A stretch of DNA of 64,000 nt, from the IMG/VR virus record IMGVR_UViG_3300026382_000001. The stretch is one strand, 5' to 3'. The notes under the pieces are model-generated. The model had not been told where the DNA came from and searched no databases. It saw only the letters and a list, made by a program, of their open reading frames with translations. Source of the DNA: a virus. Lineage: Duplodnaviria > Heunggongvirae > Uroviricota > Caudoviricetes. Position numbers and translations under genes: made by a program. Of this stretch, positions 1,034 to 64,000 are shown in pieces. The stretch's first letter is position 1; every line of letters begins with the position of its first letter.

Positions 1034-1038
1034 TCATT

Positions 1039-1950: not shown

Positions 1951-1959
1951 GGTAAAAAT

Positions 1960-3673: not shown

Positions 3674-3699
3674 AGTTATCCGGAATTTCCGGATAACTT
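3673..3699 (+). repeat. 27-bp near-palindrome AAGTTATCCGGAATTTCCGGATAACTT right after the folE stop (AGTTATC/GATAACT family; inner TTCCGGAA)
   Basis: Read from the sequence. The arms AGTTATC...GATAACT are shared with the elements at 12779, 24201, 32467 and 45118. Confidence 0.75.
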
Positions 3700-3722
3700 A
3701 ATAAATATAAAAAGGAAATACT

Positions 3723-3896
3723 ATGACAGAGGATATTAAACAGGTCTTAGAATATATTATCGAAACTGAAGATCCGTATGGATTAAAATCAGAAACGTTA
3801 TATAATAATATAAAAAATAGTGTCGGTACTCCAGAATCTTTAGCTAAGGTTTTTGGAGTACCTGTTGATCTTGTCGTTAAAATTAAGGAAGATTAA
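3723..3896 (+). CDS. small hypothetical protein (57 aa, MTEDIKQVLEYIIETEDPYGL...)
   Basis: Not in the ORF track because it is shorter than 60 aa. RBS AAAAGGAAA lies 6 nt upstream. Its stop overlaps the next start (TAAATG at 3894-3899). Confidence 0.4.
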   Translation: MTEDIKQVLEYIIETEDPYGLKSETLYNNIKNSVGTPESLAKVFGVPVDLVVKIKED

Positions 3897-11951: not shown

Positions 11952-12357
11952 ACAAAGAAAACTTGAAAAAGAATTATCTAAACCACCTTTTGAAACTAAG
12001 GGTATGGCATTTGTTGGTTATAAATTATCATTTCAAGGTTATAGTTGCGATAATGATTATGGCGTTAATTTCAATAGCGCGTATTTAGGAACATATTTTG
12101 ATATTTATAATTTAGCTTTAAAAATTGTCGAACGCGAGAAACCAGATTCAGACTTTGAAAATAATTTAATATCTTATATAGATGGATGCGACTCATTATT
12201 AGAAATAAGTGATGAATTAAGATTCGATAATTTAGGAAATCTTATTAAAACTCATAACTTAATATTAATTATGGGAATAGTTGGAGCAGGTTTAAATTGT
12301 CAGGTTGTTGGAGTTCCACAATGGACAAAATTTGAAATAAATAAAGGACATTTATGA
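11905..12357 (+). CDS. hypothetical protein
   Basis: 150-aa ORF. It overlaps the previous ORF, so the true start may be the internal Met at about 12003. Confidence 0.35.
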   Translation: MNIEKVRNILKQKTLKQRKLEKELSKPPFETKGMAFVGYKLSFQGYSCDNDYGVNFNSAYLGTYFDIYNLALKIVEREKPDSDFENNLISYIDGCDSLLEISDELRFDNLGNLIKTHNLILIMGIVGAGLNCQVVGVPQWTKFEINKGHL

Positions 12358-12785
12358 AAAAAATATGTTTAATATCATGCGTTAAAAGTAAAAATGAAGG
12401 TTCTCATAAAGCAGGAGAATTATATTGTGGTCAGTTATACACTGGTCATTTAAAATATGCAAAAAGTCTTGGTTTCGAAGAAAACGATATTTATATTTTA
12501 AGCGCTAAACATGGTTTATTATCATTCAATGATATTATAGAACCATATGAAAAAACTCTTAATAATATGAAAAAATCGGAACGAAATAAATGGGCAAAAA
12601 ATACATTAAATCAAATCAAAAGTAAATTCAATATCTTAGATACTGAATTTACAATTCTTGCTGGTAAAAATTACTATGAAAATTTAGAACCATTTTTACC
12701 AAATGTTAATTTGCCAAAAGAACTTAAAGGTTTACCTATTGGTAAACGAGTTCAAATGTTAAATAGTTTAGTAAAACTGAGATAA
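12354..12785 (+). CDS. hypothetical protein
   Basis: 143-aa ORF. Confidence 0.4.
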   Translation: MKKICLISCVKSKNEGSHKAGELYCGQLYTGHLKYAKSLGFEENDIYILSAKHGLLSFNDIIEPYEKTLNNMKKSERNKWAKNTLNQIKSKFNILDTEFTILAGKNYYENLEPFLPNVNLPKELKGLPIGKRVQMLNSLVKLR

Positions 12786-12816
12786 CTATTGATAGTTAAC
12801 TATTGATAGTTATCTC
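12779..12816 (+). repeat. 38-bp near-palindrome GAGATAACTATTGATAGTTAACTATTGATAGTTATCTC (member of the AGTTATC/GATAACT family)
   Basis: Read directly from the sequence. It overlaps the stop codon of the upstream gene and the region upstream of the next gene. Confidence 0.8.
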
Positions 12817-12832
12817 TATTGGAGATGAGTTA

Positions 12833-16271: not shown

Positions 16272-17177
16272 ATGTATTCATATGAAAATATTATATCAAA
16301 ATTTATCGATAAACATGGAAATAAATACGATTATTCTTATGTAGATTATAATAATATGAAGACAAAAATAAAAATTATTTGTCCAATACATGGTGAATTT
16401 TTACAAACCCCAACCGAACATATTAAAGGTGGTTGTAAAAGATGTCATTCGACAAGATTAACAACCTCGGAAGTTAAGGCAAGATTTATTTCTAAACATG
16501 GTGATAAATATAATTATTCTCATGTTATTTATATTAAAAATGATAAAGCTGTAAAAATTTTTTGTAATACGTGTAATCAATTTTTTTTTCAAAAACCAAT
16601 TATCCATTGGTCTGGTGGTGGTTGCACTAAATGTTCTTATAAAAAAAAGAGAATTTCTTGGAAAAAAGATATTAAATTTTTTCAAAAAAAATTTAATAAT
16701 AAATACTGTTATAAATATAATCCCGAAATTGATAAAAAAATATATATTTTTTGTCCGTCTCATGGTTGGTTTACAAGTTTAATAGGTAATCATCGTAAAG
16801 GTATTGGATGCCCTAAATGCTCCAATACAAGAACTCTTAGTAAAGGAGCCACTAAAATAAAAAAATTTTTAGAATCTAATCAAATAAGTTTTGAATTAGA
16901 AAAAAGATTTCCAGATTGCCAAAATGATAAAACATCATATTCTTTACCATTCGATTTTTATTTATCTGATAAAAATATTTTAATAGAATTTGATGGAGAA
17001 TTACATTATAAAAATATATCCTTTTTTGGAGGAAAAGAAGAGTTAAAAAAAATCCAAGATCGTGATAAAATAAAAACGGATTATTGCAAAATAAACCATA
17101 TTAAACTTATTCGAATTCCTTATTGGAATTTTGATAAAATAGAAAAAATATTAAAAGGAGAAATATGTCAAATTTAA
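16272..17177 (+). CDS. homing-endonuclease-like protein (3 zinc-ribbon repeats plus DUF559-like nuclease)
   Basis: KYDYSYVDY...KIICPIHGEF..GGCKRCHS repeats and a C-terminal FDFYLSDKNILIEFDGELHYK..RD.IK..YC..N.I.LIRI. It is a paralog of the ORF at 10650. Confidence 0.55.
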   Translation: MYSYENIISKFIDKHGNKYDYSYVDYNNMKTKIKIICPIHGEFLQTPTEHIKGGCKRCHSTRLTTSEVKARFISKHGDKYNYSHVIYIKNDKAVKIFCNTCNQFFFQKPIIHWSGGGCTKCSYKKKRISWKKDIKFFQKKFNNKYCYKYNPEIDKKIYIFCPSHGWFTSLIGNHRKGIGCPKCSNTRTLSKGATKIKKFLESNQISFELEKRFPDCQNDKTSYSLPFDFYLSDKNILIEFDGELHYKNISFFGGKEELKKIQDRDKIKTDYCKINHIKLIRIPYWNFDKIEKILKGEICQI

Positions 17178-22448: not shown

Positions 22449-23420
22449 ATGGAAAAAATTAAAAAAATTATGGAATTATTAGAAAACGATTATGGTACTG
22501 AAGATAATGAAAAACAAGTCATTGCAAAAAAAGAAATTATTGAGAAGTTATTTCTCACTGTTAAAATGGACCCATTTAATAATATGGACGATGCAAAAAA
22601 AGTTCTTAAAGTAATTAAGCAGTGCCAAAAAATCGCTAAAAAAAATGATTTAATGGATCAACTTGGAGATGTTTTAAAGTTTATGGAAACGATCGTTATT
22701 GAAAAATTAGAAATTAATTTAAAGGAAAATCCAGAACCAGTATTAGATAAAGAAGAAGCTTTAGAAATCAATAATCTTCTTGATGATGTAACCAATTTGG
22801 TAAACAATTTAATGAAAGAAGTATCAAAAGATAGAGATACTGAAGAAGATAAAGACTATGAATGTGATTTAGCCGAATTACCATCTAATGGTAAAACCGA
22901 TAAACCAAGTGGAGTACGTTTATCAAAATTTATGGAAATTGCTTTTATAAAAAATGATAATGAAACTGTATCATTAACTGCTACAAATTTACCAAGCGAA
23001 ATTTCTAAAAAAGAGTTTAAAAAACTTATCAAATATAATGGACTTTGGTTAGATAAAAAAACAGTTCTTAAAGAGGGTAATCATTATATGGGTATAAGAT
23101 TATTGTATTCTAAGTTTCATACCACTATGCTTTTAGCTGATAAAAATGTAAAAGTAAAAACTGATACAGGGGTAATTAATCAAAAATTTGTGCTGGTGCA
23201 GAAAGAAACAGTTAATGGAAAAAGTAAACTTAAAATTGCTAACTTCCTTAATTATGCTGGTATGAAAGTAAAAGACGTTGTAAAAAGTAAAGATATGCGA
23301 AAATTTTTAAAAGAAGTTACTTTTGAGAATGATGTAAATTTAGTACAAGACCAATACTGTATCGATGATCAAAATAACTTTTACCGTATTTGTATCCCAT
23401 TTCAAAGAGAATCTAAATAA
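22449..23420 (+). CDS. hypothetical protein
   Basis: 323-aa ORF. Confidence 0.4.
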   Translation: MEKIKKIMELLENDYGTEDNEKQVIAKKEIIEKLFLTVKMDPFNNMDDAKKVLKVIKQCQKIAKKNDLMDQLGDVLKFMETIVIEKLEINLKENPEPVLDKEEALEINNLLDDVTNLVNNLMKEVSKDRDTEEDKDYECDLAELPSNGKTDKPSGVRLSKFMEIAFIKNDNETVSLTATNLPSEISKKEFKKLIKYNGLWLDKKTVLKEGNHYMGIRLLYSKFHTTMLLADKNVKVKTDTGVINQKFVLVQKETVNGKSKLKIANFLNYAGMKVKDVVKSKDMRKFLKEVTFENDVNLVQDQYCIDDQNNFYRICIPFQRESK

Positions 23421-24163
23421 TGAAAAGTATTGCTATTATTTCTAGTAGTGGTGGTTTAGATTCAAGTACCTTAATTTATAAGGTACTGAATGAAACTAAT
23501 TGGGACGTTGTTCTAGTTAGTTTTAATTATGGTCAGGTTAATAAAGTGGAGCTTATGGCCCAAGAAAAGTTATATAGTATTTTAAAAGAAAGTAAATTTT
23601 CAAATAGAATACTTATGCGAGCGAAATTAAGTATTCCACTTTTTGATGATATTGGGTTAGTAAATATGCAAGGTATTGATGATGCAGATCATGAGTACTA
23701 TACTCCAAGCAGAAATTTATTATTTGGTACTACGGTAGCTAGTTTTGGTGAAGCTATTGCTACTAAGTACGGTTATGATAATGTATTTCTTGGTATGGGT
23801 TTACATAAACATACCGAAGAAGCTTATGGTGGGAAAGGTGAAGGAGAAGTTTCTCAGTATTGGGATATTACTCCAGAATTTGCCAAACGACTTCAAAAAG
23901 TTTTTGATCTTAATGATCAAAAACATATCGAAATTTATGCACCTTATATAAATTCTTATAAAAAGAATATTATTGAGGATGTTGTAAAATACAAGGTACC
24001 GTATAAAAATACTTGGACTTGTTATGAGCCACAAAAGGTATTGGATAATGGAAGAGATATCTATACACCATGTCTAAATTGTGAAGCTTGTATGGAGCGG
24101 GAAATCAATGCAAAAGGAATTATTGAAGATATTAATGATTATAAAATAATTTTAGAATCGTAA
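23420..24163 (+). CDS. queC: 7-cyano-7-deazaguanine synthase QueC
   Basis: PP-loop IAIISSSGGLDSS and a C-terminal Zn-binding CYEP...CLNCEAC cluster. 247 aa. Confidence 0.7.
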   Translation: MKSIAIISSSGGLDSSTLIYKVLNETNWDVVLVSFNYGQVNKVELMAQEKLYSILKESKFSNRILMRAKLSIPLFDDIGLVNMQGIDDADHEYYTPSRNLLFGTTVASFGEAIATKYGYDNVFLGMGLHKHTEEAYGGKGEGEVSQYWDITPEFAKRLQKVFDLNDQKHIEIYAPYINSYKKNIIEDVVKYKVPYKNTWTCYEPQKVLDNGRDIYTPCLNCEACMEREINAKGIIEDINDYKIILES

Positions 24164-24269
24164 ATAACTATCAATAGTTTAAGAACTGGTGGTGGTAGTT
24201 TAGTTATCTATATAGATAACTATTGTACTATTAATACACTCAACTATCAATAGTTAACTATTGATAGTT
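24164..24269 (+). repeat. compound palindromic element (AACTATCAATAGTT; TAGTTATCTATATAGATAACTA; perfect 28-bp AACTATCAATAGTTAACTATTGATAGTT)
   Basis: Read directly from the sequence. It sits between queC and the clpB-like gene. Confidence 0.8.
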
Positions 24270-24345
24270 GTTATTAAAATATGATGTGGAGGATGAAAAC
24301 CTCCTAAAAAAATCAATATTAAATAAAAAAAAGAAGGAATCGAAA

Positions 24346-29986: not shown

Positions 29987-30274
29987 ATGACGTTTGGTAA
30001 AGTAGTAGAGTTAATGAAAATGGATAGTAGTATTAAAGTACAACGTAGTGGTTGGAATGGAAAAGGAATGTATCTTTTTTACGTTCGCCCTGAAACCATT
30101 ATAGTTACTCAAGGTCATCCTTTTAATCGAGTATTTATCGAAGGTACTGAAATTCAAATACAATCATATATTGCTATGAAAACTGCTCAGGATACTATTG
30201 TTCCTTGGTTAGCTTCGCAAACGGATATGTTAGCAGATGATTGGGAATTATTTGGAGGAGCGAAAAGTGAGTAA
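29987..30274 (+). CDS. DUF2829-like small protein (the family that contains the anti-Thoeris sponge Tad2)
   Basis: 95 aa with MTFGKVVELMK....RSGWNGKGMYLF........LADDWELF. The GWNGKG and C-terminal DWE pattern matches what I recall of DUF2829. Confidence 0.45.
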   Translation: MTFGKVVELMKMDSSIKVQRSGWNGKGMYLFYVRPETIIVTQGHPFNRVFIEGTEIQIQSYIAMKTAQDTIVPWLASQTDMLADDWELFGGAKSE

Positions 30275-30686
30275 TTTAAAATATCCGATTCTTAGAGAAC
30301 GTTGGATTAAACTTAGAAAAAATAAAGATAAATCCTCGGAAGATATTATTTTACAAAAGCTTCTTGGATTAATTATCGATAAAACTGCCAAGTTGGCTAA
30401 AGAAGATAAATCAGAGAATTTAACAAAGTATGTTGATAAAGCTATTAAAAGCGAATACAAACAACAGTTAGACTCGTTAAGTAAAGGGGTTAAATGTGAA
30501 ACGGAAATTAAACTTTTAGAAGATATGTTACCAAAAACATTATCCGAAGAAGAAACGGTTAATATTATTTTAGATATTTTAGCTAGAAATAATAAACCAA
30601 ATATGGGATTAGTGATGAAGGAATTAAGAACGATTCCAAATTTAGATATGAAACTAACGTCTAACTTAGTTAAAAAATTATTATAA
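30267..30686 (+). CDS. YqeY/GatB-C-terminal-domain-like protein
   Basis: ..MLPKTLSEEETVNIILDIL.....NMGLVMKEL......KLTSNLVKKLL resembles the YqeY consensus (YLPKQLSEEE..., ...LVKELL). A GTG start at 30267 with RBS GGAGGAG is proposed. Confidence 0.45.
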   Translation: MSNLKYPILRERWIKLRKNKDKSSEDIILQKLLGLIIDKTAKLAKEDKSENLTKYVDKAIKSEYKQQLDSLSKGVKCETEIKLLEDMLPKTLSEEETVNIILDILARNNKPNMGLVMKELRTIPNLDMKLTSNLVKKLL

Positions 30687-30696
30687 GGAAAGAATT

Positions 30697-31008
30697 ATGA
30701 AAAAAGTTATAAAGATATTTACAGGATTATTAATAATAGGTGCAAGTTTATTTGCGGATAGTTCGTCTGGTAAAAATAAATGGAATAATGGTTCAATAGA
30801 TATTGAAACAAGTTTAAATAATGTTTACATTTACGATAAAAAAAATTATTTATTAAAAAACCAAAACCAGTACGAAATGGAAGCAGGTTTACGAGATAGT
30901 ATATATAAAAAACCAAATTTATGTAAATTGGTTAATACTAAACCAGCTATTTTTGTATATATTTATTCAGATGGTGCATTAACAATTACAATAGATGGAT
31001 GTAAATAA
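30697..31008 (+). CDS. small secreted protein (signal peptide)
   Basis: MKKVIKIFTGLLIIGASLFADSS N-terminus. Confidence 0.4.
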   Translation: MKKVIKIFTGLLIIGASLFADSSSGKNKWNNGSIDIETSLNNVYIYDKKNYLLKNQNQYEMEAGLRDSIYKKPNLCKLVNTKPAIFVYIYSDGALTITIDGCK

Positions 31009-31322
31009 TGGAAATTACGATACAATGGTTTTGGTTAATTGGAGTGGTCGTTATGACAATCGAAGCTTTTTTAGCTTGGAAGTGGTTCAATACTGGCTTT
31101 TCAAAAAAATGGGGATATACTTTACTAGTAACTATTATACTAGTAATTATAACTGGAAGAATGGTTAAAATTGAGCAAATTACTAAACGTGATTTTAATA
31201 TTTTACAAACTCAAAATATAGAATCTCATAAAAAGTTACCACCTAAAGTAACGGACGATTCTTTTATCGAGAATGATAAAAATACCAAAAGTATTGATAT
31301 CAATTTTGTTAATGCTCATTAG
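31008..31322 (+). CDS. small membrane protein (2 TM)
   Basis: Two hydrophobic segments: WFWLIGVVVMTIEAFLAW and LLVTIILVIITG. Confidence 0.4.
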   Translation: MEITIQWFWLIGVVVMTIEAFLAWKWFNTGFSKKWGYTLLVTIILVIITGRMVKIEQITKRDFNILQTQNIESHKKLPPKVTDDSFIENDKNTKSIDINFVNAH

Positions 31323-31331
31323 GGATATTTA

Positions 31332-31559
31332 ATGAAGTATCTATACAAAACTTTTATAATTGGATTAATATTTATTGGATATGTATTTAACATATATTTT
31401 CTAACAGTTGATCCAAAAATAAGAGATTACCAATGGGTTAATAAAGTTGGGATAGTGATTATTCCACTTGGATCAGTTATGGGTTTAGTTTATGCACTTG
31501 ATAATATCAAATGTGTTTCATATTGTAAGAGTAAAAATATAAAAACAGAGGAAAAATAA
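31332..31559 (+). CDS. small membrane protein (2 TM)
   Basis: Two hydrophobic segments: FIIGLIFIGYVFNIYFL and IVIIPLGSVMGLVYAL. Confidence 0.4.
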   Translation: MKYLYKTFIIGLIFIGYVFNIYFLTVDPKIRDYQWVNKVGIVIIPLGSVMGLVYALDNIKCVSYCKSKNIKTEEK

Positions 31560-32444
31560 ATGAGAAAAGTTTTAAAAAAATTAATGTTCGTAGTGAGTTT
31601 AGGTTTAGCTATGATAGTAATGACTGGTTGTAATGAACAAGTACCAGCTGGTTATGGTGGAAAGATTCTAGGTAAAAATGGGTGGCAACCAGAGATTTAC
31701 CCACCTTCTAAAGTTTGGGTAGATACTACTTTTACTTTTACTCCAGAAAAATTATTTCTTTATCAAACAACTACACAAAAATTTGTACAACCAATCAAAA
31801 TTCTTTTAAAAGATAAGTTGACACTTAATGCCGAAATAGTATTCCGTGGTAGAATAACTACAAATAAAAAAATCATCAATGGTTTATTTAATGATATGCC
31901 AATGAATGACAATATCGTTCAAACCTCAGAAGTATATAATACTTATGGTAAAATGATTGTACTTAATACGGCTCGAGAAGTAATTTCTAAATATAATGTC
32001 GACGAAGTTAATAAAAATTATGCTCGTATTACTATTGAATTATATGAAGCTATTAAGCCCAAGTTAGAAGGTTTACCTATTCAAATTTCAGATGTGACAT
32101 TGGGAAATATTCAATATCCTAAAATAGTAACGGAAGCTATTGAAAAAGCTAAACAACGTAGAATGGCTATCGAACAGGAAAAAGCTCAAGTACAAATCGA
32201 ATTGGAAAAAGCTAAAGGTAGAGAACAGGTTGCTAAAGCGGAATATCGTATTAAAATGTTAGAAGCAAAACGAATACGCGATTATAATAAAATGATTGAG
32301 CAAGGGGTTACACCAAATCTTCTTAAACTTCGTAAGTTAGAAGTACAAGAAAAAATGGTGGAAGCTATTAAAGAAAATAAAAACGTGGTTTATATGCCTA
32401 TGGATATGATGAATGGTAGCACAAACATGAGAATTATTAAATAG
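31560..32444 (+). CDS. SPFH/band-7 (prohibitin/HflK-like) lipoprotein
   Basis: Lipobox MIVMTGC after the signal peptide. The C-terminal helical region (AIEKAKQRRMAIEQEKAQVQIELEKAKGREQVAKAEYRI) is typical of SPFH proteins. Confidence 0.5.
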   Translation: MRKVLKKLMFVVSLGLAMIVMTGCNEQVPAGYGGKILGKNGWQPEIYPPSKVWVDTTFTFTPEKLFLYQTTTQKFVQPIKILLKDKLTLNAEIVFRGRITTNKKIINGLFNDMPMNDNIVQTSEVYNTYGKMIVLNTAREVISKYNVDEVNKNYARITIELYEAIKPKLEGLPIQISDVTLGNIQYPKIVTEAIEKAKQRRMAIEQEKAQVQIELEKAKGREQVAKAEYRIKMLEAKRIRDYNKMIEQGVTPNLLKLRKLEVQEKMVEAIKENKNVVYMPMDMMNGSTNMRIIK

Positions 32445-32466
32445 CTGGTTGTCGTGAACTAGTTTA

Positions 32467-32500
32467 GAGATAACTATTAATAGTTATCTCTTTTTTATTT
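32467..32500 (+). terminator. perfect 24-bp palindrome GAGATAACTATTAATAGTTATCTC followed by TTTTTTATTT (AGTTATC/GATAACT family member acting as a terminator-like element)
   Basis: A hairpin plus U-tract lies 22 nt after the SPFH gene stop. Confidence 0.5.
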
Positions 32501-32527
32501 ATATATTAAATATAAAAAAGGATAAAT

Positions 32528-34578: not shown

Positions 34579-35543
34579 AAAAAGTAAAAAGTTTAAATGA
34601 ACTTATAAATGGAGAATATTATTGGATGCATAGTAAAATGATTTTTGATAATGGTTTTAGAAGTTCACAAATGTTAATACACCGTTATCGAAATCTTGAA
34701 GATAGTAGAGCTTATTTTGGGGACCGTATTTGGGCATTTGATGGTAATAACCAAGCTATGGAAAAATATGATATTTATGGACCAGTTCCAAAACCATTTA
34801 GAGGTGATTTAAGCAATCCAAATAATTCACAATCTTCGGAATTTGAAAAAGTATTTGGAAATAATGAAGAATTGGATTTAATGATTGCTCAAATTAGAGA
34901 TAGTTTTACAGAAGAAATTACAAAATATATTCCGGAGAGTAGCGCTTATAGTTCACCTGAATGTGTTTTATTTGCTCTTTATAAAAGTATTGAAGATAAG
35001 TTATCAACTTCAAAAGAGATAACTAAAGGTACTGATAGTTTACTATCAATAGTTGACGTCTCAAAAGAAAATAAATTTGAATTTTTTTGGGGAGGAATAT
35101 TTTCACAATGGGCTAAATATAATTTTACCGATGAATATGGAGTAATCTATAATTGTGCTGAACAGTACATGATGGCTCAAAAAGCAAAAGTTTTTCAAGA
35201 TAAGGAAACGTATGATAAAATTATGGCTAGTACTAATCCAAAAGAACAGAAAGCTCTTGGTAGAAAAATAAAAAATTTTAATGATGAAACTTGGGATAAA
35301 TATAAAATAGATGTTGTTCGAACTGGAACGTATTTAAAATTTTTGCAACATCCAGAATTAAAAGAATATCTTTTAAGTACTGGTAATAAGGTAATAGTAG
35401 AAGCTTCTCCGTATGATAAAGTTTGGGGAATTGGTCTCAGTGAAACAGATCCATTAAGATTAGATCCAAAAAATTGGAAAGGGCAAAATCTGCTTGGTTT
35501 TATTATAATGCAGGTAAGGGAACAATTAAAGGAGATTAAATGA
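34575..35543 (+). CDS. NADAR (YbiA/DUF1768)-domain protein with an N-terminal extension of about 150 aa
   Basis: The C-terminal half has FWGG.FSQW....F......YNCAEQYMMAQKA..F.D......IM.S..P.EQK.LGR.I.NF....W.........G....F.QHPEL...LL.TG...IVEASP.D..WGIGL. Confidence 0.55.
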   Translation: MKKVKSLNELINGEYYWMHSKMIFDNGFRSSQMLIHRYRNLEDSRAYFGDRIWAFDGNNQAMEKYDIYGPVPKPFRGDLSNPNNSQSSEFEKVFGNNEELDLMIAQIRDSFTEEITKYIPESSAYSSPECVLFALYKSIEDKLSTSKEITKGTDSLLSIVDVSKENKFEFFWGGIFSQWAKYNFTDEYGVIYNCAEQYMMAQKAKVFQDKETYDKIMASTNPKEQKALGRKIKNFNDETWDKYKIDVVRTGTYLKFLQHPELKEYLLSTGNKVIVEASPYDKVWGIGLSETDPLRLDPKNWKGQNLLGFIIMQVREQLKEIK

Positions 35544-42500: not shown

Positions 42501-42522
42501 GATAGTATCTTCGGATACTATC
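42501..42522 (+). terminator. stable hairpin GATAGTATC-TTCG-GATACTATC (C(UUCG)G tetraloop) immediately 3' of the stop. It lacks a U-tract, so it may be an RNA processing or stability element rather than a terminator.
   Basis: Perfect 9-bp inverted repeat with a UUCG loop. Confidence 0.4.
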
Positions 42523-42545
42523 ACTTCCTGTCGTTAAATTTTGGA

Positions 42546-42553
42546 TATAAATA
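42546..42553 (+). promoter_or_regulatory. TATAAATA motif (T4 late-promoter-like) in a 260-bp non-coding region
   Basis: Exact TATAAATA about 200 nt upstream of the next gene block. Identifying it with a gp55-type late promoter is inference. Confidence 0.25.
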
Positions 42554-42758
42554 CTTTAAAATAACGTATTCTAAGTATAGATATCTTATAAACAGAGAGA
42601 TATAATTAACATGCAATTGTTAAATATCTTTTATTAAATTTATAGTTTTCTATGGATTTGGTAAGGGATATCTATATTATTTCTAAGGTGCTCTTCGGAG
42701 TATTTATATGGCCTCAAAGGCAAAGGTTTTCATAGCCTAAATTCGAGAAGGAGAAATT

Positions 42759-42977
42759 ATGGAAGAGTTAAATAAATTTGAGAAAGCTTTAATAATGTTT
42801 TCAATATTTGAATTGTATACTATGTTAACATTAGATATGAGCATAACTGAGTTAAATATATTAACCATTGTTACAATATTGCCTATACTAGGCCTATTAA
42901 TATATAATATAATTGATTATATTATATTTGAGTATAATATTTATACTAAAAAAAGAGGAGCGCGTTATGGTATATAA
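42759..42977 (+). CDS. small membrane protein
   Basis: RBS GAAGGAG. Hydrophobic segments ALIMFSIFELYTMLTL and ILTIVTILPILGLLIYNII. Confidence 0.4.
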   Translation: MEELNKFEKALIMFSIFELYTMLTLDMSITELNILTIVTILPILGLLIYNIIDYIIFEYNIYTKKRGARYGI

Positions 42978-43125
42978 TACAAATACAAGAAGACTTTTCG
43001 AAATCTTCTTAAAGTTAAATCCGCGTGGATCGGTAAGTGAGTTTGCTCGTTGTCGAGCAGCTTTACAAGCAGAGTTAGATTTCCAGATCACTTCTGGAAA
43101 TCAACAATCATTGAATGCTCTTTAA
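42966..43125 (+). CDS. small hypothetical protein (52 aa, MVYNTNTRRLFEIFLKLNPRGSVSEFARCRAALQAELDF...) in a locally GC-rich patch
   Basis: RBS GAGGAG 7 nt upstream of the ATG. A terminator hairpin overlaps its stop. Confidence 0.3.
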
Positions 43126-43140
43126 GAGCATCTTTATTTT
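43113..43140 (+). terminator. hairpin ATGCTCTT/AAGAGCAT plus T-rich tract
   Basis: A 7-8 bp stem spans the stop codon and is followed by CTTTATTTT. Confidence 0.4.
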
Positions 43141-43165
43141 GTAATTAAATTTAAAAAGGATATAT

Positions 43166-43588
43166 ATGTTAGAGAGACAAATTCTAATGGGAATAATATT
43201 ATATAGTTTTCTATATACTATTCCCAAACAATTTCCTATTGGTAAAATGGGAAGAAAAAACATTATGAAAGCTTTAAAAAAGCAACTTAAGATTTACGAT
43301 GTAAAGAAAGGTCATGATAAATATCTAAAGCTTATTAAACAGGCTGAGATAGTTATGAATAATACGAAAGTTGTTTTTTCTGGGGAAGAATTGGAAATGC
43401 TCAATCCGGGAGCGTTATTTGCAATTCTTGAAAAGAATTATCCTGAGTACTTAGAATTCTTTGATTTTAATCAATCTTGGATTGATAATATAAAAGGGAA
43501 CTATTTGAGTACTGGTAATAATACGTTTGTAAGTATTAAGTACACTAATAAATTAGTCCAGGAGATAGAAGATGCTAATCTCTTATAG
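43166..43588 (+). CDS. hypothetical protein
   Basis: 140-aa ORF. Confidence 0.4.
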   Translation: MLERQILMGIILYSFLYTIPKQFPIGKMGRKNIMKALKKQLKIYDVKKGHDKYLKLIKQAEIVMNNTKVVFSGEELEMLNPGALFAILEKNYPEYLEFFDFNQSWIDNIKGNYLSTGNNTFVSIKYTNKLVQEIEDANLL

Positions 43589-43787
43589 AAAAAACCCAGA
43601 ATGGAATACATGCAATTTAATTCTTTCTGGAGATGAAAAACAGAATATAAAATATCATATATATAAGAAATTGGAAATCTTATATATTAATTATGATATT
43701 GATATAATAGATGTTTCTATTAATGGTATTGTAGGTGGAGATGTAGAACTAACTATATTCTTTCAATTAATAGCTCAAAGCAATTAA
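43572..43787 (+). CDS. small hypothetical protein
   Basis: 71-aa ORF. It overlaps the previous ORF. Confidence 0.3.
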   Translation: MLISYRKNPEWNTCNLILSGDEKQNIKYHIYKKLEILYINYDIDIIDVSINGIVGGDVELTIFFQLIAQSN

Positions 43788-43810
43788 ATAAATTAGCCAA
43801 AGGAGAAATT

Positions 43811-44224
43811 ATGGCAACGTTAGATAAAGAGAAACTAGAGTTTCTTAAATTAGCAAAAGGTTATAAAGCTGGAGAACCAGCGTTAGTGTCCTTTGATACA
43901 TTAGTAGGGTTGATTGAAACTAAGGATAATGCCTTAGATAAGATTCAAGAACTAGAAGAAGAAAATCGTTTATTAAAAGTACGGTTAAAAGAAGCGCATG
44001 CCTCTAAATTAGCAGAACGAAAAGCTAATGCAGATAAAAAAGAAGATTATTTAAAAGAGCTAAAAAAATTGGAAAATCAAGTTGATAAAGCGAACCTAAG
44101 AGCGAGTACTTTTTTAGTTGCGGATGCTCACCGCAAAATAAAAGCTAAAAAAGAAAGAGAAAAACTAGAGAAAAGAAAAATCTTTTCAAAAACGGATCTT
44201 ATGTTAGGAGCATATTATGAGTAA
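43811..44224 (+). CDS. coiled-coil protein
   Basis: 137 aa with a K/E/L-rich heptad composition. Confidence 0.4.
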   Translation: MATLDKEKLEFLKLAKGYKAGEPALVSFDTLVGLIETKDNALDKIQELEEENRLLKVRLKEAHASKLAERKANADKKEDYLKELKKLENQVDKANLRASTFLVADAHRKIKAKKEREKLEKRKIFSKTDLMLGAYYE

Positions 44225-44609
44225 AATTGAAAGAACATTAAAAGAAAAATCAGATAAGAGTGTTGTAATTGTTTGGCCTGCGTTAATTCTTCAAGAAGAA
44301 GAAATTCCAAAAGCCTTAAAATTGCTTCAAGAAATTGGAGCTAAAAAAATTAATTATTTGGGTATGGTAATTACTAACCCAGATATTGATGATGATGGTA
44401 ACGATATCCCAGAAACTGGAGGACGAACTGATCATTTTTTTGAAGTTCTAGACGCCGAAAGTGGATTTTGGGTCAATCGTTTAAGACTAGGCCTTAGATT
44501 GTTATCCGATGTTTTATGGTCGGTTAATGATTATGATAAAAATCCAATCTATCCTAATTGGATTAAGGAATACGTCCCAGATGAAGATAATTGGGATATA
44601 CAAAAATAA
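44217..44609 (+). CDS. hypothetical protein
   Basis: 130-aa ORF. Confidence 0.4.
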   Translation: MSKIERTLKEKSDKSVVIVWPALILQEEEIPKALKLLQEIGAKKINYLGMVITNPDIDDDGNDIPETGGRTDHFFEVLDAESGFWVNRLRLGLRLLSDVLWSVNDYDKNPIYPNWIKEYVPDEDNWDIQK

Positions 44610-44636
44610 AAATAAAAATAAAAAAAAGGATTCGTA

Positions 44637-45041
44637 ATGAATTTAGTTAAAAAAATATTAATGGCTTTAATTTTAGTAGTTGGTTTAAATTCCGTATTAT
44701 CCGCTAGACAAGAACTTGGTTTAAGATGTGAAGGAATTAATAATCCAAATGTAAAATATTATACTATTTTACTTGGGTGGATTGGGGATAATTCTATAAT
44801 TATTTCGGAAATTACTAGAGGGAATCATAGACATAACATATATTCCGATGATAATTATTTTCCACCATTATCAATTACAGCGATAGATGTTGCAGCCGAT
44901 ATTGGTTATATTTTTCAAATTATGAATAATAATATAATCTTATATACAGTTTCTTCTTCGCCGGAAGATATCCAACGATACGAATGTAATACTGTTCCTT
45001 TGATGACAATATCCAACGAATTAAATACAGACTTTAAATGA
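44637..45041 (+). CDS. secreted protein (signal peptide)
   Basis: MNLVKKILMALILVVGLNSVLSA N-terminus. Confidence 0.4.
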   Translation: MNLVKKILMALILVVGLNSVLSARQELGLRCEGINNPNVKYYTILLGWIGDNSIIISEITRGNHRHNIYSDDNYFPPLSITAIDVAADIGYIFQIMNNNIILYTVSSSPEDIQRYECNTVPLMTISNELNTDFK

Positions 45042-45050
45042 CAAAAAAAT

Positions 45051-45110
45051 GAAATAATAGTATAGATAATACTATTATTTCTTCCGCAAAATTTTTTTTA
45101 TTTTTTATTT
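45051..45110 (+). terminator. terminator: 13-bp stem GAAATAATAGTAT-AGATA-ATACTATTATTTC followed by a long T-rich run
   Basis: A perfect inverted repeat lies 10 nt after the stop, then AATTTTTTTTATTTTTTATTT. Confidence 0.55.
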
Positions 45111-45117
45111 AAAACAG

Positions 45118-45176
45118 GATAACTATTGATAGTTAACTATTGATACCACGTGGTATCAATAGTAAGTATAGTTATC
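45118..45176. repeat. 59-bp near-palindrome GATAACTATTGATAGTTAACTATTGATACCACGTGGTATCAATAGTAAGTATAGTTATC (centre CCACGTGG)
   Basis: Read from the sequence. It lies in the convergent intergenic region between the + and - gene blocks. Confidence 0.8.
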
Positions 45177-45195
45177 TATATACGTTTGTCTCTTT

Positions 45196-45217
45196 AGTTA
45201 ACTATTAATAGTTAACT
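45196..45217. repeat. perfect 22-bp palindrome AGTTAACTATTAATAGTTAACT
   Basis: Read from the sequence. Confidence 0.8.
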
Positions 45218-45263
45218 AAGTGTCGTATGTTAGTTATTTATAATTATTTTAACGACAGGAGAA

Positions 45264-45285
45264 GAATTCCGGAATTCCGGAATTC
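45264..45285. repeat. perfect 22-bp palindrome GAATTCCGGAATTCCGGAATTC (three overlapping GAATTCC units) just 3' of the minus-strand gene end
   Basis: Read from the sequence. Confidence 0.8.
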
Positions 45286-45295
45286 TAAAAATTAT

Positions 45296-45808
45296 TTAAT
45301 TTTCAATTTTATTAACTAATGGGCCCTTTCTACGGTACTTTGTTCCTATGGATTGGATAAGACCAACCTCATAATCTAAAAGTTCTTTAGCGTCATTAAA
45401 GACCTGATGGATAACGATCCAGTTCAATTGATATTCTTTCCAATCATGTGGAACTCCTATATCATTGTTCTTTTTCGCTCTTTCCATATTTTTTTCTATT
45501 TCTTTAAATTTTTCAACTTTTAAAACATTATGTTCTTTATTTTTTAAGTAAGATTGTATATGTTGATTATGTCTATAACCAGCACCTCTAGAGGCTTTAC
45601 CAACGTAAATAGGTTCATATGCACTACAATATGGTTTACCATCTGGAGCCTTAATATCAAAAGCTTTATTCAATTTTTTAAAAGGATCTAAATAAATATA
45701 AATATAAAATTGATATCTGTTATAATTGAAATTATCTATTTTTGGATAAATTTTATAAAGTTTTAATAAGTTCATATTATTACAAGTGCTTTTGATATTT
45801 TGGTTCAT
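45296..45808 (-). CDS. hypothetical protein (possible small nuclease-like, low confidence)
   Basis: 170 aa. ..EPIYVGKASRGAGYRHNQH.. is weakly reminiscent of a GIY-YIG/HNH-like core. Confidence 0.3.
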   Translation of the reverse strand: MNQNIKSTCNNMNLLKLYKIYPKIDNFNYNRYQFYIYIYLDPFKKLNKAFDIKAPDGKPYCSAYEPIYVGKASRGAGYRHNQHIQSYLKNKEHNVLKVEKFKEIEKNMERAKKNNDIGVPHDWKEYQLNWIVIHQVFNDAKELLDYEVGLIQSIGTKYRRKGPLVNKIEN

Positions 45809-45809
45809 C

Positions 45810-46178
45810 CTATACTCCTAATTTTTCAATTGTTTTTTCAGCTACAGTATCTATAAAAGAAATATCTTGAATTAAAGAATTTTGAATTTCTTTTTCAATT
45901 ATTTTTTTATCTTCTGTCAATGAAGTTTTTAAAAGTTCTAATTCTAATTTTAATTTGCTATTTTCTTTATTTAAATTATCTATCAGTTCTTTTTCGTCTT
46001 TTATAAATTTTTTTAAATTATCTATTTCGTTTTGAATTTTTTTATCCAAAGTTTTTTGAAAATAATCAGAACTTTTTTCGTAGCTTTCAAAACGAGTATT
46101 TAATTCCTTTTTAAATGTTTTTATATTATTAGAAAAATAATTTTTTAATTCTTTAAATACTTCGCTATAATTTTCCAT
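45810..46178 (-). CDS. small coiled-coil protein
   Basis: 122 aa. K/E/L-rich. Confidence 0.35.
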   Translation of the reverse strand: MENYSEVFKELKNYFSNNIKTFKKELNTRFESYEKSSDYFQKTLDKKIQNEIDNLKKFIKDEKELIDNLNKENSKLKLELELLKTSLTEDKKIIEKEIQNSLIQDISFIDTVAEKTIEKLGV

Positions 46179-46188
46179 ATTTAAATCC

Positions 46189-46383
46189 TTACTCAGTTTT
46201 AGAAGCTTCTTGCTCCATCAATAATCTTAATTCTTCTTTAGTTTTTAGAAATTCTTTTTCAAGATCTATTCCACCAAAATCAATTACTTTGCCATCCGCT
46301 TCTACTACTTTAGTATCTGTATCGTACTTGATTACTTCCGCTTCCGGAAGTAATCTTTTAAATGTGTGCATTTTTATTCTCAT
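46189..46383 (-). CDS. small hypothetical protein
   Basis: 64-aa ORF. Confidence 0.3.
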   Translation of the reverse strand: MRIKMHTFKRLLPEAEVIKYDTDTKVVEADGKVIDFGGIDLEKEFLKTKEELRLLMEQEASKTE

Positions 46384-46392
46384 AATATACCC

Positions 46393-49300
46393 TTATTTTA
46401 ATTTATAAAGTTGAGTTTTAATTAAGAATGTTATTTTATCTCGGATCAAACTTCTTAACATAATCCTAACTTCTTGTCTTTCTTTTAGAACTATTTGCCC
46501 AGATGTATTATTATAATCATCTTGAGTACAATCCATAAGATTAAACATATTTGTATCTTTTGATTTATAAATCTCATCATTATAAGTACTTTTGGTTAAA
46601 CTACCATAAGAATCAAAATCCCCTTGTGGAAGTACAAGTGCTTGACCAATGAATTCATCGACATCCGTATAATCAGTTCTCCAATTATTAACATAATTTT
46701 CAGTACTAATATTAAAATTATATACACCTGCATCTAAAACAATACTTCTCATATTTTGCCAATCAGTATTCTTAACAGTAATGTACTGAGAACTTCTTAA
46801 TGTATTCTTTTCCGTTCTTAATTCTGGTAAATTTGTACTAGAATTACTAGAAGTTTCCTGAATTGGTAATTCTACAGTTTCTATAAAACCATTGCTATTA
46901 GTAAGACTTAATATATTACCGGAAATATCTAAAGCTTTACCATCTTCAGCTAATCCAACATAATCAGTTTTAAGAACTAAATCTGTAATTGGTTTACCAT
47001 TTAAAGTACTTGCGTTGGAAGCTTTTGAAACTATTTTTCTACCAGTTAATATATCGTTAAAATTATTTTCTAATTCTAATTCTTTATCAGTACTTCTTTT
47101 AATCTCGTCTTCTATTTTATTATCTAGTATTTTTTCAGCCGCTATAGCACGTTTTTCTTCTTTTTCTATTTTTTCTTTAATATCTGAATCATCGTATTCA
47201 ACAACATTTCCAGAAATTCCAGAATTAATTAAATTAGATAATTTAACATCTAATTCATTTAAATCAGAAGTTAATGTAACTATATTGTCAGTAAGAACAT
47301 CAGTTCTTGAAATACTGTCTATTTTTAAAGCCGATGTACTAGCAGCATTTTCAGCAATTGCTTGTTCTAAATTAATATTTTTAGATTGAACATCTTCTAA
47401 AGTATCTTTAATAGTATTTAAATCGGAAAGTACTTGTGTTAAAGCTTCCGTTTTAGTTTCTAATGAACTTAAACGTTCTCTATTAGCAGTAATTAAATCA
47501 CTAATATCTTTATTCTCGATATCTATAGAATTAATATAATCAATTACTTCGGCAAATGAATTAAGATCCATTGTACTACCATCAATAATACTAGTTATCT
47601 GATCTTTTACTTTTATAACTTCTTCTTCTAATTCTAATTCTTTAGTAATAGCTCTTTCTTCTTCTTTAGTAATTAAAGAACGAACTTCTGAATCATTATA
47701 AGCTTCGGGAATTTCTAAATTAGATAATTGAGCAATTTGGGCACTTAAAGAATCTAATGAATTGTTTATAGCTTCAATATCTTCTACAACTTGTTTTAAT
47801 TTTTCTTTATTATTATTAGATAAAGTATTAATTACCGCAATTTCTTCATTATTATTTGTAGTTTCTTCAATGGTATCTGTTTTTAACCAGTTATCGAAAT
47901 ATTTTACTCTTCTATGAACATATGTAAAATCATTATTTAAATTATTTAAATAATCTTTTAATCCTTTTATTGAATCAGTTTTCTTAACTTTTTCGTCAAT
48001 ATCTATATTTTCTAATTCAAATATTTTTTCATTAAGGCCTGTTATTTTTTCTTCAGCTTCTTTTAATTTTAGTAATACTGATTCAGTATTTGTATCTAGA
48101 ATTGTTTCAGTCGTACTTAACTTAGTTTCCGTTTGATTTAAACGTTCTTCTAAGGTTAAATGTTTTTTACCAAAATCATCAAATTTGAAATCATAATCTG
48201 CTTTTAGTTTCGCTTCAATTTCATTAATATTTTTAGTTTTTTCATTTAATAAATTGCTAAATTTAACATCCTTTAAATCCAAGGCACTTTTTAATTCTTC
48301 AATATTTTCAATAGTTTCACTATCCAATGATTTGTATTTTCTTTCAAATTTAACATCTAAGTCTTTAATATCATTTTTAGTTTTTTCTAATTTAACTCCA
48401 TGATCAGTTAAAAGGTTTTCGAGTATTTGCTCAACGTTTTTTGATCTAGTAGTTTCATTTTCAACTTTAGTATCAATTCCAGAAATACTTTCAATAATTT
48501 CTAAAATCTTTTCTATTAATTCTGCTTTAATTGATCCTTCTTCTCGAGAAGCTCTTGCAATTTCTAGAATTACTTTATTATCAACATCTTTAATAATAGC
48601 TTTTATTTCAGAAATAAGTGCTGGTAAGTGAGTATCTGAATCTAAGTTAATACTATTTACAAAATTTACTATTTCTGTAAAAGTTGTTTTATCTGCGGTA
48701 CTTGCAGTAAGTATTGAATCGATACGTGATTTTTCAATTGTTAAATCAGTATTAATTTTATCAGTTTCTAAAATACATAATCTATGTTTTTCATTGATTT
48801 CTGTTTGAAGGCGTTGTTCCTCTAAAATAGCTCTAGTTGTTTCAGTTTCAATTTTTTTATTTAATTGAATTTCTTCTTCTTTCGCTCTTTTATTTTCATT
48901 GATAATATCTTCTCTAAGAGAATTTTCATTAGTTCTTGAAGTTAATAATTCTTGATCTAATTTAACACTTAGTATATCATTTTTAGTGATACAATCTTCT
49001 TCTAAAACATCTATTTGATCCTGAAGATCATTTTCCACACCTTTAGCTCTAGAAATTTCTTGATCTACTCTAGAATTAATATAATTTTCTTCTTTTGTAG
49101 CTCTAATATTTTCTTGTGAAATTAAACTTCCAAGATATTCTTCTTTTACTTTTGCTCTATCGATTTCATTATCTAAATTATCCGAAATTTTATTTTCTTC
49201 CGTCTTAGCTCTTTGAATTTCATTTTCTAAATCAATAGTAATTTCTTTTTCTCTTTTAGAAGCTCTAGCCGTTTCAATATTTACAGAATTTTGAATAGTA

Positions 49301-63572: not shown

Positions 63573-64000
63573 AATTTTTCCTTTAAAATTGTTTTAATAT
63601 TATTTATTTCTTTATATGAAAGTCGAATAAGATTTATATTATTATTTTCGCAGTACTTATTTTTTATAAAATCTCTTTTCTTAGTTTTTTCAAAGGCCTC
63701 TTTACCACCAAAATAACGATAAGCTTTAAAATGTTGTTCTCCGTCATATTCAATGATAGTATTTAAATCTGGTAAATAAAAATCAAAGGGTAATGGTAAA
63801 ATATTTTTACAATCATTAAATTTATATTCTTGTGTAAAATTAATATTATTTTCTTCTAAAAATTTTCTAATAGCTTTTTCACCTTTTGAACTTTTACATA
63901 TTGGACAACCAATACCAGACCAATGTGAACTAGATACCTGCCAAAAACTACCATGCTTTGGGCAAATAATTTCTACTTTTTTATCTTTTCCAAAATATTT
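63566..64000 (-). CDS. homing-endonuclease-like protein (partial; 5' end beyond the window), paralog of the 10650 and 16272 ORFs
   Basis: Reverse-strand translation gives ..KVEIICPKHGSFWQ..HWSGIGCPICKSSKGEKAIRKFLEENNINF..FDFYLPDLNTIIEYDGEQHF..RD.IKNKYC..NNINLIRL..*. Its stop overlaps the tmk start. Confidence 0.55.
   Translation of the reverse strand, partial: KYFGKDKKVEIICPKHGSFWQVSSSHWSGIGCPICKSSKGEKAIRKFLEENNINFTQEYKFNDCKNILPLPFDFYLPDLNTIIEYDGEQHFKAYRYFGGKEAFEKTKKRDFIKNKYCENNNINLIRLSYKEINNIKTILKEKLC

Follow-up and report, generated by a model that had tools for sequence, protein, structure and literature searches.

The stretch of phage DNA analysed here (the window; all 64,000 nucleotides of the Caudoviricetes record IMGVR_UViG_3300026382_000001 of IMG/VR) carries a family of palindromic elements between its genes, and this study concerns that family and in particular the locus at 45118-45285, where members of the family lie between two opposing gene blocks. 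The window is AT-rich (24-31% G+C) and 95% coding, leaving a non-coding share of 5%. Plus-strand genes extend up to 45041 and minus-strand genes run from 45296 onward. The plus block encodes GTP cyclohydrolase I, QueC, a DUF6884 protein, both T4-type topoisomerase II subunits, a split family-B DNA polymerase, a ClpB-like ATPase, an SPFH protein, a metallophosphoesterase, a Tad2-like protein and several homing endonucleases. The first open reading frames (ORFs) of the minus block are very large (1428 and 2433 aa) and gave no match to any family. The arrays in the gap between the blocks, designated locus E, lie between two convergent terminators at 45051-45105 (+) and 45286-45248 (-), which form its left and right bounds and stand outside the palindrome family.

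A 14-bp dyad in intergenic DNA

The element common to the loci is a 14-bp dyad, AACTAT-NN-ATAGTT, with the half-site AACTAT and a pyrimidine-purine (YR) centre. Eight exact copies are present in the window at four loci (starting at 12784, 12798, 24166, 24242, 24256, 32472, 45121 and 45200), against 0.035 expected from Markov simulation, and ten copies are found when up to one mismatch is allowed (1.0 expected). Neighbouring units abut without a spacer, which results in a 14-bp period. The initial annotation had placed the elements almost exclusively between genes, and this holds: all eight exact 14-mers of the window are intergenic, as are 90 of the 94 exact copies in the window and the related loci L001-L047 together, where more than 90% of the DNA is coding. 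The near-matches to the 14-mer inside genes are not conserved. The same annotation had described a single family built on the arms AGTTATC and GATAACT. The family is real, since inverted pairs of these heptamers within 60 bp of each other occur six times against 0.075 expected (200 first-order Markov simulations of the window, with a simulated maximum of 1). However, its defining arms are AACTAT and ATAGTT. The heptamer AGTTATC alone is hardly enriched (19 copies versus 12.7 expected), and GAT and ATC are merely common flanks (symmetrised consensus ATAGWT flanking AACTAT). The sixth heptamer pair, at 34999-35054, lies inside a gene and includes a one-mismatch 14-mer; it is not kept in the closest relative and therefore looks like a chance occurrence.

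Comparison with related genomes extended the family well beyond the window. An exact scan of IMG/VR with the tandem word AACTATNNATAGTTAACTAT (a 20-mer) identified 46 loci on about 20 contigs, a single contig of 167 kb holding at least 12 of these loci and one of 130 kb holding 7, and the flanks on these contigs were otherwise at most ~75% identical or could not be aligned. One contig, 3300028534_000028 (loci L047, L033, L038, L097 and L100), is a syntenic relative with ~83% DNA identity, and most of the other motif-bearing IMG/VR loci can be aligned to the window in motif blocks only. Among cultured phages, a near-identity DNA search with 43000-47500 and a tblastn search with a virion-like window protein each gave zero matches, and the best match was at most 33% protein identity, between the topoisomerase and those of T4-like phages, so that no cultured relative could lend its annotation. 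The tandem word had 25 isolated matches, in unrelated taxa, among 596 Gb of bacterial and archaeal genomes, where a back-of-envelope estimate for 18 specified bases gives a chance level of ~17. This word is therefore at chance level in bacterial genomes and provides neither a host clue nor a bacterial regulon. The boxes are a real, highly non-random and clade-specific family of intergenic palindromes.

The features of the window that bear on this family are listed below, with a strand where one applies.

Locus A, 3673-3699, plus strand: hairpin AAGTTATCCGGAATTTCCGGATAACTT, with the core CCGGAATTTCCGG, behind the GTP cyclohydrolase I gene (-16.9 kcal/mol)
Locus B, 12779-12816: GAGAT, two abutting 14-mers (12784-12797 and 12798-12811, centres TG) and ATCTC
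Locus C1, 24166-24179: single 14-mer AACTATCAATAGTT, 2 nt past the QueC stop codon
Locus C2, 24201-24222: 22-bp palindrome TAGTTATCTATATAGATAACTA
Locus C3, 24241-24270: perfect 30-bp palindrome with abutting 14-mers at 24242-24255 (centre CA) and 24256-24269 (centre TG)
Locus D cassette, 32449-32527, plus strand: GTTGTCGTGAACTAGTTT, the 26-bp perfect palindrome AGAGATAACTATTAATAGTTATCTCT (32466-32491) and T6
Plus-block terminator, 45051-45105, plus strand: 13-bp hairpin and CTTCCGCAAAATTTTTTTT (-12.6 kcal/mol, z = -5.75)
Locus E part 1, 45118-45134: GAT and the 14-mer AACTATTGATAGTT (45121-45134)
Locus E part 2, 45135-45163: 29-bp double unit AACTATTGATACCACGTGGTATCAATAGT, the inner halves being variant half-sites
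Promoter-like block, 45165-45192, minus strand: GAGACA, 16 nt, TATACT, containing TATAGATAA (45172-45180)
Locus E part 3, 45195-45220: 26-bp perfect palindrome TTAGTTAACTATTAATAGTTAACTAA, with the 14-mer at 45200-45213
Variant half-sites, 45214-45235: AACTAA-GTGTCGTATG-TTAGTT, 10 bp apart
Minus-block terminator, 45248-45286, minus strand: hairpin AGAATTCCGGAATTCCGGAATTCT (45263-45286), TCT and the conserved tail CCTGTCGTTAAA

All five loci that had initially been assigned to the family are present in the sequence, and the palindromes quoted as perfect were either correct or slightly longer than had been noted (26 bp at 32466-32491, 30 bp at 24241-24270 and 26 bp at 45195-45220). A further perfect palindrome of 28 bp, around CACGTG, was found at 45136-45163 within part 2 of locus E. 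Two assignments had to be withdrawn. Locus A has no 14-mer core, its likeness to the family being restricted to the outer arms. The GAATTCCGG repeat at 45263-45286, listed before as a (GAATTCC)3 palindrome, is really AGAATTCCGGAATTCCGGAATTCT, a palindrome with an 8-bp period that forms the hairpin of the minus-block terminator. Likewise, the proposed position at gene-block boundaries applies to locus E only, since the other loci lie inside a co-directional gene array.

At locus B, the left flank of the palindrome contains the stop codon of the DUF6884 gene (12783-12785), and the next gene has its ribosome-binding site (RBS) 5 nt and its ATG 17 nt beyond the palindrome. The predicted RNA fold is somewhat stronger on the sense strand than on the antisense strand (-20.4 versus -16.5 kcal/mol). 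It should be noted that the right flank ATCTC can instead pair with the GAGAT of the next Shine-Dalgarno sequence (ATCTC-TATTG-GAGAT, 12812-12826), an arrangement that is kept in L097; such an alternative pairing could couple the state of the hairpin to translation. At locus C, box C1 is conserved in L047 with the centre alone changed from CA to TA, and this single box folds into an unstable structure (-1.0 kcal/mol, z = -0.24). C2 carries the promoter-like sequence TATAGATAA on both strands (24211-24219 on the plus strand and 24204-24212 on the minus strand), and the sole change to its palindrome in L047, from C to T, degrades the minus-strand copy while the plus-strand copy stays intact. The ATG of the ClpB-like gene is 76 nt downstream of C3, and L047 and L038 carry C3 without a single change, in flanking DNA of ~83% identity. 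Over 104 bp, locus C and its ortholog show ~97% identity with one change in a box centre, and the promoter-like TATAGATAA box of this locus faces the ClpB-like gene. The cassette at locus D contains one 14-mer (32472-32485); its RNA fold of -12.4 kcal/mol is directly followed by UUUUUU, and the T6 tract leads into an A/T-rich stretch and the next gene's RBS. This agrees with the earlier observation that one member (32466-32497) has a U-tract and resembles a terminator.

Part 2 of locus E recurs with 85-94% identity in L032, L035, L036, L012 and L033, amid unrelated flanks. The minus-strand promoter-like block at 45165-45192 is flanked by a 14-mer upstream and an array downstream, and it is kept in the copies in L032, L035 and L036. 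It faces ~110 nt of palindromes, with no ORF before the terminator beyond them, which appears to be bidirectional; we infer from its sequence that the block acts as a promoter. The variant half-sites at 45214-45235 belong to a conserved block of 33-40 bp that recurs three times in L005 and also in L006. Loci C and E share one layout, in which a single box is followed after 19-31 bp by the TATAGATAA box and after another 8-22 bp by a tandem array. Loci B and D consist of arrays without a promoter box.

When the sites from all contigs were compared, the half-site sequence was found to be invariant across diverged contigs, and the variation at the centre was restricted. Among 85 non-redundant sites, the central dinucleotide is TA in 50 and TG or CA in 31, with four others including one CG, so that the centre is YR in 82 sites (96%) against a background of 22%. 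The commonest dinucleotides of the genome, AA/TT and AT, are essentially missing at this position. Besides single and abutting 14-mers there is a double unit of 29-30 bp (AACTAT-N17/18-ATAGTT; 27 unique versions), which parses as two 14-mer-like boxes with variant half-sites (RTRSW) on the inside and has fixed outer half-sites and a fixed length. A recurrent array of 57-58 bp combines a 14-mer, a double unit and a second 14-mer (14, 29-30 and 14 bp) and thereby places four dyads at a spacing of 14-15 bp. The inner positions of the double units are self-complementary in only 48% of cases, and the commonest double unit (11 copies) pairs at 2 of 8 inner positions, which indicates that hairpin potential is not what is conserved. 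A comparison of G-U with A-C asymmetry in directly abutting pairs was uninformative, as only 11 unique pairs were available.

The arrays occur in gaps between co-directional genes, between convergent genes and, in about 10 cases, in divergent promoter regions; they usually lie 30-70 bp downstream of a terminator of the type described below. Modules of the locus E type (110-150 bp) are 85-94% identical in six other loci with unrelated flanks and are found in either orientation relative to the neighbouring genes. The genes directly downstream of arrays encode homing endonucleases (8), dUTPase (5) and ribonucleotide reductase (RNR; 3), and furthermore thymidylate kinase (TMK), a helicase, a ClpB-like protein, an RNA polymerase (RNAP) subunit and a dNK-like ATPase. 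Several copies per genome of a conserved ~170-bp non-coding core (CTAGCTAACAGATTTTAAAATAAACTTAAAAT...) are found in relatives, situated in divergent promoter regions and bordered on either side by a palindrome array (L014 2880-3040, L016 5445-5600, L005 7495-7650, L006 11275-11400 and L007 6080-6215). The window holds only the end of this core, AAATAACTAACATACGACACTTAGTT, at 45214-45241.

Promoter-like boxes, terminators and turnover of the cassettes

In the relatives, the arrays sit upstream of a promoter-like box. The sequences AGTTATCTTGTAATATT and TATAGATAT are found downstream of arrays with a TATAAT-like hexamer 0-5 nt further on, about 25-35 nt before a start codon. Of 104 unique copies of TATAGATAT, 59 are intergenic, and 50 of these 59 aim at the next gene, mostly from 19-57 nt before its ATG. 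Array-bearing upstream regions have TATAGATAT within 70 nt of the ATG in 22 of 43 cases, compared with 13 of 155 upstream regions without arrays (odds ratio 11.4, p = 3e-9), and in 14 cases the array and the box are spaced by 15-19 bp. Judged by sequence and position, TATAGATAT together with the TATAAT-like hexamer behaves as the putative promoter core of this clade. The window itself contains TATAGATAT at 13173, 18579, 39201 and 42576 (+) and at 42668 (-), and these copies share the upstream sequence CTTTAAAATAA. A scan of 44000-46500 with sigma-70 promoter and terminator consensus sequences gave no excess over shuffled sequences. The sole sigma-70-like match in the gap of locus E, GAGACA-16 nt-TATACT, coincides with TATAGATAA at 45180-45172.

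Jumbo phages that encode an RNAP have early promoters consisting of AT-rich motifs of ~10 nt centred near -10 (PMC7598289). The TATAGATAT box is similar in being AT-rich, 9-10 nt long, oriented towards genes and located ~20-55 nt before start codons, in a clade whose members encode an RNAP beta-like subunit. Unlike those promoters it is known here as a sequence motif, and the comparison concerns this neighbouring box rather than the 14-mer. The RNAP gene was seen in L017, where 632-3745 (also in L015 and L029) encodes a protein of 1037 aa that has domains 3 and 6 of RNA polymerase Rpb2, which indicates that the clade encodes its own multisubunit RNAP; no RNAP beta-like gene was found within the window.

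The terminators of this clade follow a rule opposite to that of the arrays. They consist of a freely varying hairpin followed by the tail (T)TTCCTGTC(G/T)TTAAA. The 26 unique cases are all intergenic and each has a hairpin sequence of its own; 24 of them stand directly behind a co-directional gene. Terminators of this type are present in the window at 42501-42538 (+), 45286-45248 (-) and 61960-61932 (-), and also across L001-L047. A conserved tail instead of a plain U-tract is unusual, and because relatives encode an RNAP beta-like subunit this tail may serve as a signal for termination by a phage polymerase. Locus A belongs, by its sequence, to this terminator-hairpin class and not to the 14-mer family: in L100 a compensatory A-T to G-C change is found at the base of its stem, and in L099 the terminator tail CCTGTCGTTAAA follows. 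The plus-block terminator at 45051-45105 may work in both directions, as CATTTTTTTG follows its hairpin on the minus strand.

A comparison of close relatives, covering a small number of junctions, showed that the cassettes come and go, change position and vary in length by whole 14-bp units, and thus behave as shuffled modules. Locus B consists of two boxes in the window and of a single box in its L097 ortholog, an exact difference of 14 bp, and the corresponding cluster in L096 is rearranged. Cassette D is located after the SPFH gene in the window and after the ClpB-like gene in L047 (12580-12655), each genome lacking it at the site used by the other, and the right edge of a 2.4-kb segment specific to the window relative to L047 coincides with this cassette. 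A module resembling that of locus E is present between a homing endonuclease gene (HEG) and the TMK gene in L033 and L012 and absent at the corresponding window position, 63573-63592. At three comparisons of filled and empty sites we found no target-site duplications or sharp ends, the whole intergenic region having been replaced. A miniature inverted-repeat transposable element, which would leave a target-site duplication or clean ends, was therefore rejected. If the cassettes are regulatory, their turnover would add to the T4-type phages a second case in which such elements contribute to the modular change of genomes.

Readings of the arrays

The motif, its enrichment and intergenic restriction, its conservation in the clade, the architecture of the arrays, their spacing to TATAGATAT and their turnover were observed, whereas binding by a protein, which protein this would be and its effect on regulation are inferred. 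The reading that we favour, and to which we give an even chance, is that the arrays are double-stranded DNA binding sites for a dimeric or oligomerising, clade-specific regulator, placed within shuffled cassettes of terminator, operator and promoter. Recognition of the duplex by a symmetric and probably oligomerising protein is suggested by the invariant half-sites, the YR centre, the non-palindromic double units, and the occurrence of arrays in divergent promoter regions and downstream of real terminators. The independence from orientation and context and the fixed spacing to the promoter-like box point in the same direction, and the initial proposal that the members without a U-tract are protein recognition sites accordingly stands as the preferred one. 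In the arrays it is the sequence that is conserved, whereas in the clade terminators the hairpins vary and the tail is fixed. Moreover, the 28 co-directional clusters show no bias towards folding of the sense strand (11 versus 15 clusters, Wilcoxon p = 0.68). The proposed order of a cassette would be the stop codon of a gene, a terminator hairpin with the CCTGTCGTTAAA tail, the box array, 15-19 bp, the TATAGATAT core and the RBS. A protein bound beside the promoter core, on both sides of it, or between genes might then switch the promoter or block read-through, and its targets would be early, nucleotide-metabolism and replication-class genes. The arrays at loci B and D, which have no promoter box, may be roadblocks or a terminator, D having a U-tract as well.

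Several observations weigh against this interpretation. The clear TATAGATAT promoters of the window (18579, 39201 and 42576) have no 14-mer, which means that the boxes would be accessory to the promoter and not part of it, and none of the four window loci lies at the canonical 15-19 bp from a plus-strand TATAGATAT. No regulator was identified: Pfam searches with 30 small ORFs of the window and with the genes next to the loci revealed no DNA-binding domain, the 30 ORFs having neither a helix-turn-helix nor a ribbon-helix-helix domain. An HU-family protein is encoded in some relatives, but not in the window, and nothing links it to the motif. Locus D carries a terminator-like U6 tract, and L026 has the clade terminator tail CCTGTCGTTAA behind a double unit that is a perfect palindrome, so that some copies probably double as terminator hairpins. 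Finally, the copies share a common descent and the motif itself was used to sample the loci, so that the statistics on the box centre and on the association with TATAGATAT are inflated and overstate independence. As to the HU-family (Bac_DNA_binding) gene, it encodes 86 aa and lies 67 bp upstream of an array that is followed by an HEG in six related loci (L013 2896-3156, L004, L024, L026, L037 and L045), recalling the HU-like TF1 of phage SPO1.

We consider it unlikely that the palindromes act instead as RNA stem-loops (terminators or attenuators, RNase III-type processing sites or 3' stabilisers) that resemble each other only through copying of cassettes. Such a role is suggested by the stable folds of B, C3, D and E (-20.4, -15.8, -12.4 and -19 kcal/mol, z from -4 to -7.5), by the U6 directly after D, by the start of B and C1 at or beside a stop codon, by the L026 palindrome preceding its terminator tail, and by the TG/TG centres of locus B, which give G-U pairs on the sense strand only. 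However, arrays are also present in divergent promoter regions and downstream of bona fide terminators, a lone 14-mer is unfolded, the commonest double units are not self-complementary, the 28 clusters show no sense-strand bias, and the half-sites are invariant whereas the real terminator hairpins of the clade vary freely in sequence. The family as a whole likewise does not fit the class of intrinsic terminators, in which a hairpin containing G+C adjoins a U-tract and is oriented like the upstream gene: a U-tract is found only at D, the terminator scan of 44000-46500 detected none at locus E, and the elements are independent of orientation. Rather improbable, in our judgement, is the idea that the elements are primarily recombination modules or selfish cassettes whose 14-mer has no dedicated binding protein, comparable to the promoter-early stem-loops (PeSLs) discussed below. 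Cassette D at different sites in the window and an 83%-identical relative, the presence or absence of the E-like module at the HEG-TMK junction, the copy-number difference of one 14-bp unit at locus B, the ~90% identity of the E module amid unrelated flanks, and the joining of arrays to a terminator and a promoter-like box as in PeSLs are all in line with it. Against it stand the missing target-site duplications and clean indel junctions at the cassettes, and the fact that copying alone leaves the YR-only centre, the invariant half-sites and the 14/15-bp geometry unexplained. Recombination of modules is in any case compatible with protein binding and not an alternative to it.

Two readings that assign the boxes to particular proteins have little in their favour. 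It is highly improbable that the arrays are recognition or cleavage sites, or autoregulatory operators, of the HEGs of the clade (phrog_559, treble-clef zinc-finger type), even though a phrog_559-family HEG is the most frequent gene directly downstream of arrays in the relatives (8 unique cases) and these enzymes have repeated zinc-finger DNA-binding modules. None of the four window HEGs (8216, 10650, 16272 and 63592) adjoins an array and none of the four array loci adjoins an HEG, which counts against the initial suggestion of HEG or nicking-enzyme targets; L047 lacks the HEG at 16272-17177 and has no array at the empty site; and arrays are also located before dUTPase, RNR, TMK, helicase and ClpB-like genes. 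At least as remote is a relation to variant NrdR boxes, that is, to sites of a host or phage NrdR repressor of RNR and nucleotide metabolism. The NrdR box, reportedly defined by Rodionov and Gelfand in 2005, is said to read acaCwAtATaTwGtgt. It is a 16-bp palindrome, and nrd promoters have two such boxes 31-32 bp apart from centre to centre. The two motifs have a CTAT-NN-ATAG core in common, the inner half-sites of double units read ACACTAT, and RNR, dUTPase, TMK and dNK-like genes are found downstream of arrays. Yet the centre of the present boxes is YR (TA, TG or CA; 96%) and never AT, their spacing is 14, 29 or 43 bp rather than 31-32 bp, and most arrays are not at nrd genes but also precede HEGs, ClpB-like and helicase genes or lie in convergent gaps. 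Among the window proteins, neither an ATP-cone nor an NrdR protein was seen, and the tandem motif is at chance level in bacterial genomes. With at least 12 loci per genome, the ideas of a replication origin and of a packaging site were dropped, and the packaging-related function considered earlier is unlikely.

The cassettes can be compared with several known systems. In T4-type phages, PeSLs unite a promoter and a terminator in one composite cassette (Arbiol et al. 2010, PMC2839356; Comeau et al. 2014, PMC4122927), and recombination among PeSLs gives rise to mini-circles. Like the present cassettes, they are short repeated intergenic units that combine a palindrome or stem-loop with a promoter and extend up to the next RBS, occur in many copies per genome, differ in presence and position between close relatives, and are linked to plastic loci, among them HEGs, a split DNA polymerase and genes of nucleotide metabolism. 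In PeSLs, however, a sigma-70 promoter is conserved and the stem-loop is variable and often G/C-rich, whereas here an invariant AT-rich palindrome forms regular 14-bp arrays, the promoter-like sequence is TATAGATAT(N0-5)TATAAT-like without a consistent -35 element, so that the sigma-70 promoter of a PeSL is missing, and upstream of the array there is usually a distinct terminator whose tail is conserved. The stoperators of Cluster A mycobacteriophages, temperate phages with an L5-type repressor (gp71), are asymmetric 13-bp sites that are oriented with transcription and bound by a monomeric repressor, the immunity repressor of the phage (PMC9283540, PMC6550527). Both systems have one short motif at tens of short intergenic sites near gene ends that is read as a transcription-controlling protein site, and the many copies seen in stoperator genomes are matched here by 4 loci in 64 kb and at least 12 tandem loci on the 167-kb contig; the present boxes differ in being dyad-symmetric rather than asymmetric, tandem and independent of orientation. 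Rho-independent terminators are matched by locus D, with its 26-bp palindrome and U6, and several arrays fold stably, but most boxes have no U-tract, their stems are composed of A/U only, they are found in promoter regions, and their sequence rather than their pairing is conserved. The met-boxes of MetJ and the heptads of the omega repressor are tandem palindromic operator arrays of cooperative repressors with periods of 8 and 7 bp, respectively. With these the present arrays share abutting repeats without spacer, a variable number of units and half-sites that alternate every ~7 bp, a geometry expected for cooperative dimers. They differ in sequence and period (14 bp versus 8 or 7 bp) and no ribbon-helix-helix protein was found here, so that the likeness concerns the working mode only.

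Returning to the preferred reading of the arrays as protein binding sites, we tentatively propose a more specific version, which is possible but doubtful: the arrays could be operators of an unrecognised regulator (HU/TF1-like or an ORFan) that gates TATAGATAT early promoters and marks the boundaries of transcription units, with the promoter core, operator array and terminator tail together making up a self-contained code. The setting of that code would be an uncultured large-phage lineage with its own multisubunit RNAP, 7-deazaguanine genes and a non-canonical terminator signal. That regulatory palindromes recur between the genes of phages is already known in general; the lineage is new. If the boxes are indeed operators, the promoter core TATAGATAT, the operator array AACTAT-YR-ATAGTT and the terminator hairpin with CCTGTCGTTAAA would amount to a sequence-level map of transcription units for a lineage without a cultured relative. 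Such a map would allow early and late regulons to be predicted, and would supply DNA bait for the regulator and metagenome markers of the clade.

Other features of the window

Scans for tRNAs and Rfam families in the window revealed nothing at gathering thresholds; in a permissive Rfam scan the palindromes matched plant-miRNA hairpins below threshold only, which we judged to be meaningless. The window shows no lysogeny genes. Four free-standing HEGs are present, at 8216-9340, 10650-11540, 16272-17177 and 63592-64000 (-), and belong to phrog_3339 and phrog_559, which are of the treble-clef zinc-finger type. One of them splits the family-B DNA polymerase region, and one sits between the topoisomerase II subunit genes and is missing in the close relative L047. 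A protein with a Tad2-like domain (Thoeris anti-defence 2; E = 1.7e-23) is encoded at 29987-30274, at the edge of the 2.4-kb stretch (30087-32509) that cannot be aligned to L047. The genes for GTP cyclohydrolase I (2921-3673), the QueC homologue (23420-24163) and the DUF6884 protein (12354-12785) together suggest the synthesis of a 7-deazaguanine DNA modification.

A non-coding stretch of 141 bp at 42552-42692 is 100% identical, in reversed orientation, to L007 4464-4604, on a 167-kb contig that elsewhere is at most ~75% identical to the window. Its plus-strand RNA is predicted to fold with -43.8 kcal/mol (z = -4.35) and many G-U pairs, and it had no match in Rfam. The ortholog in L031 has a 6-nt insertion located exactly in the hairpin loop, and the stretch is likely to be a structured leader or small RNA upstream of the gene at 42759.

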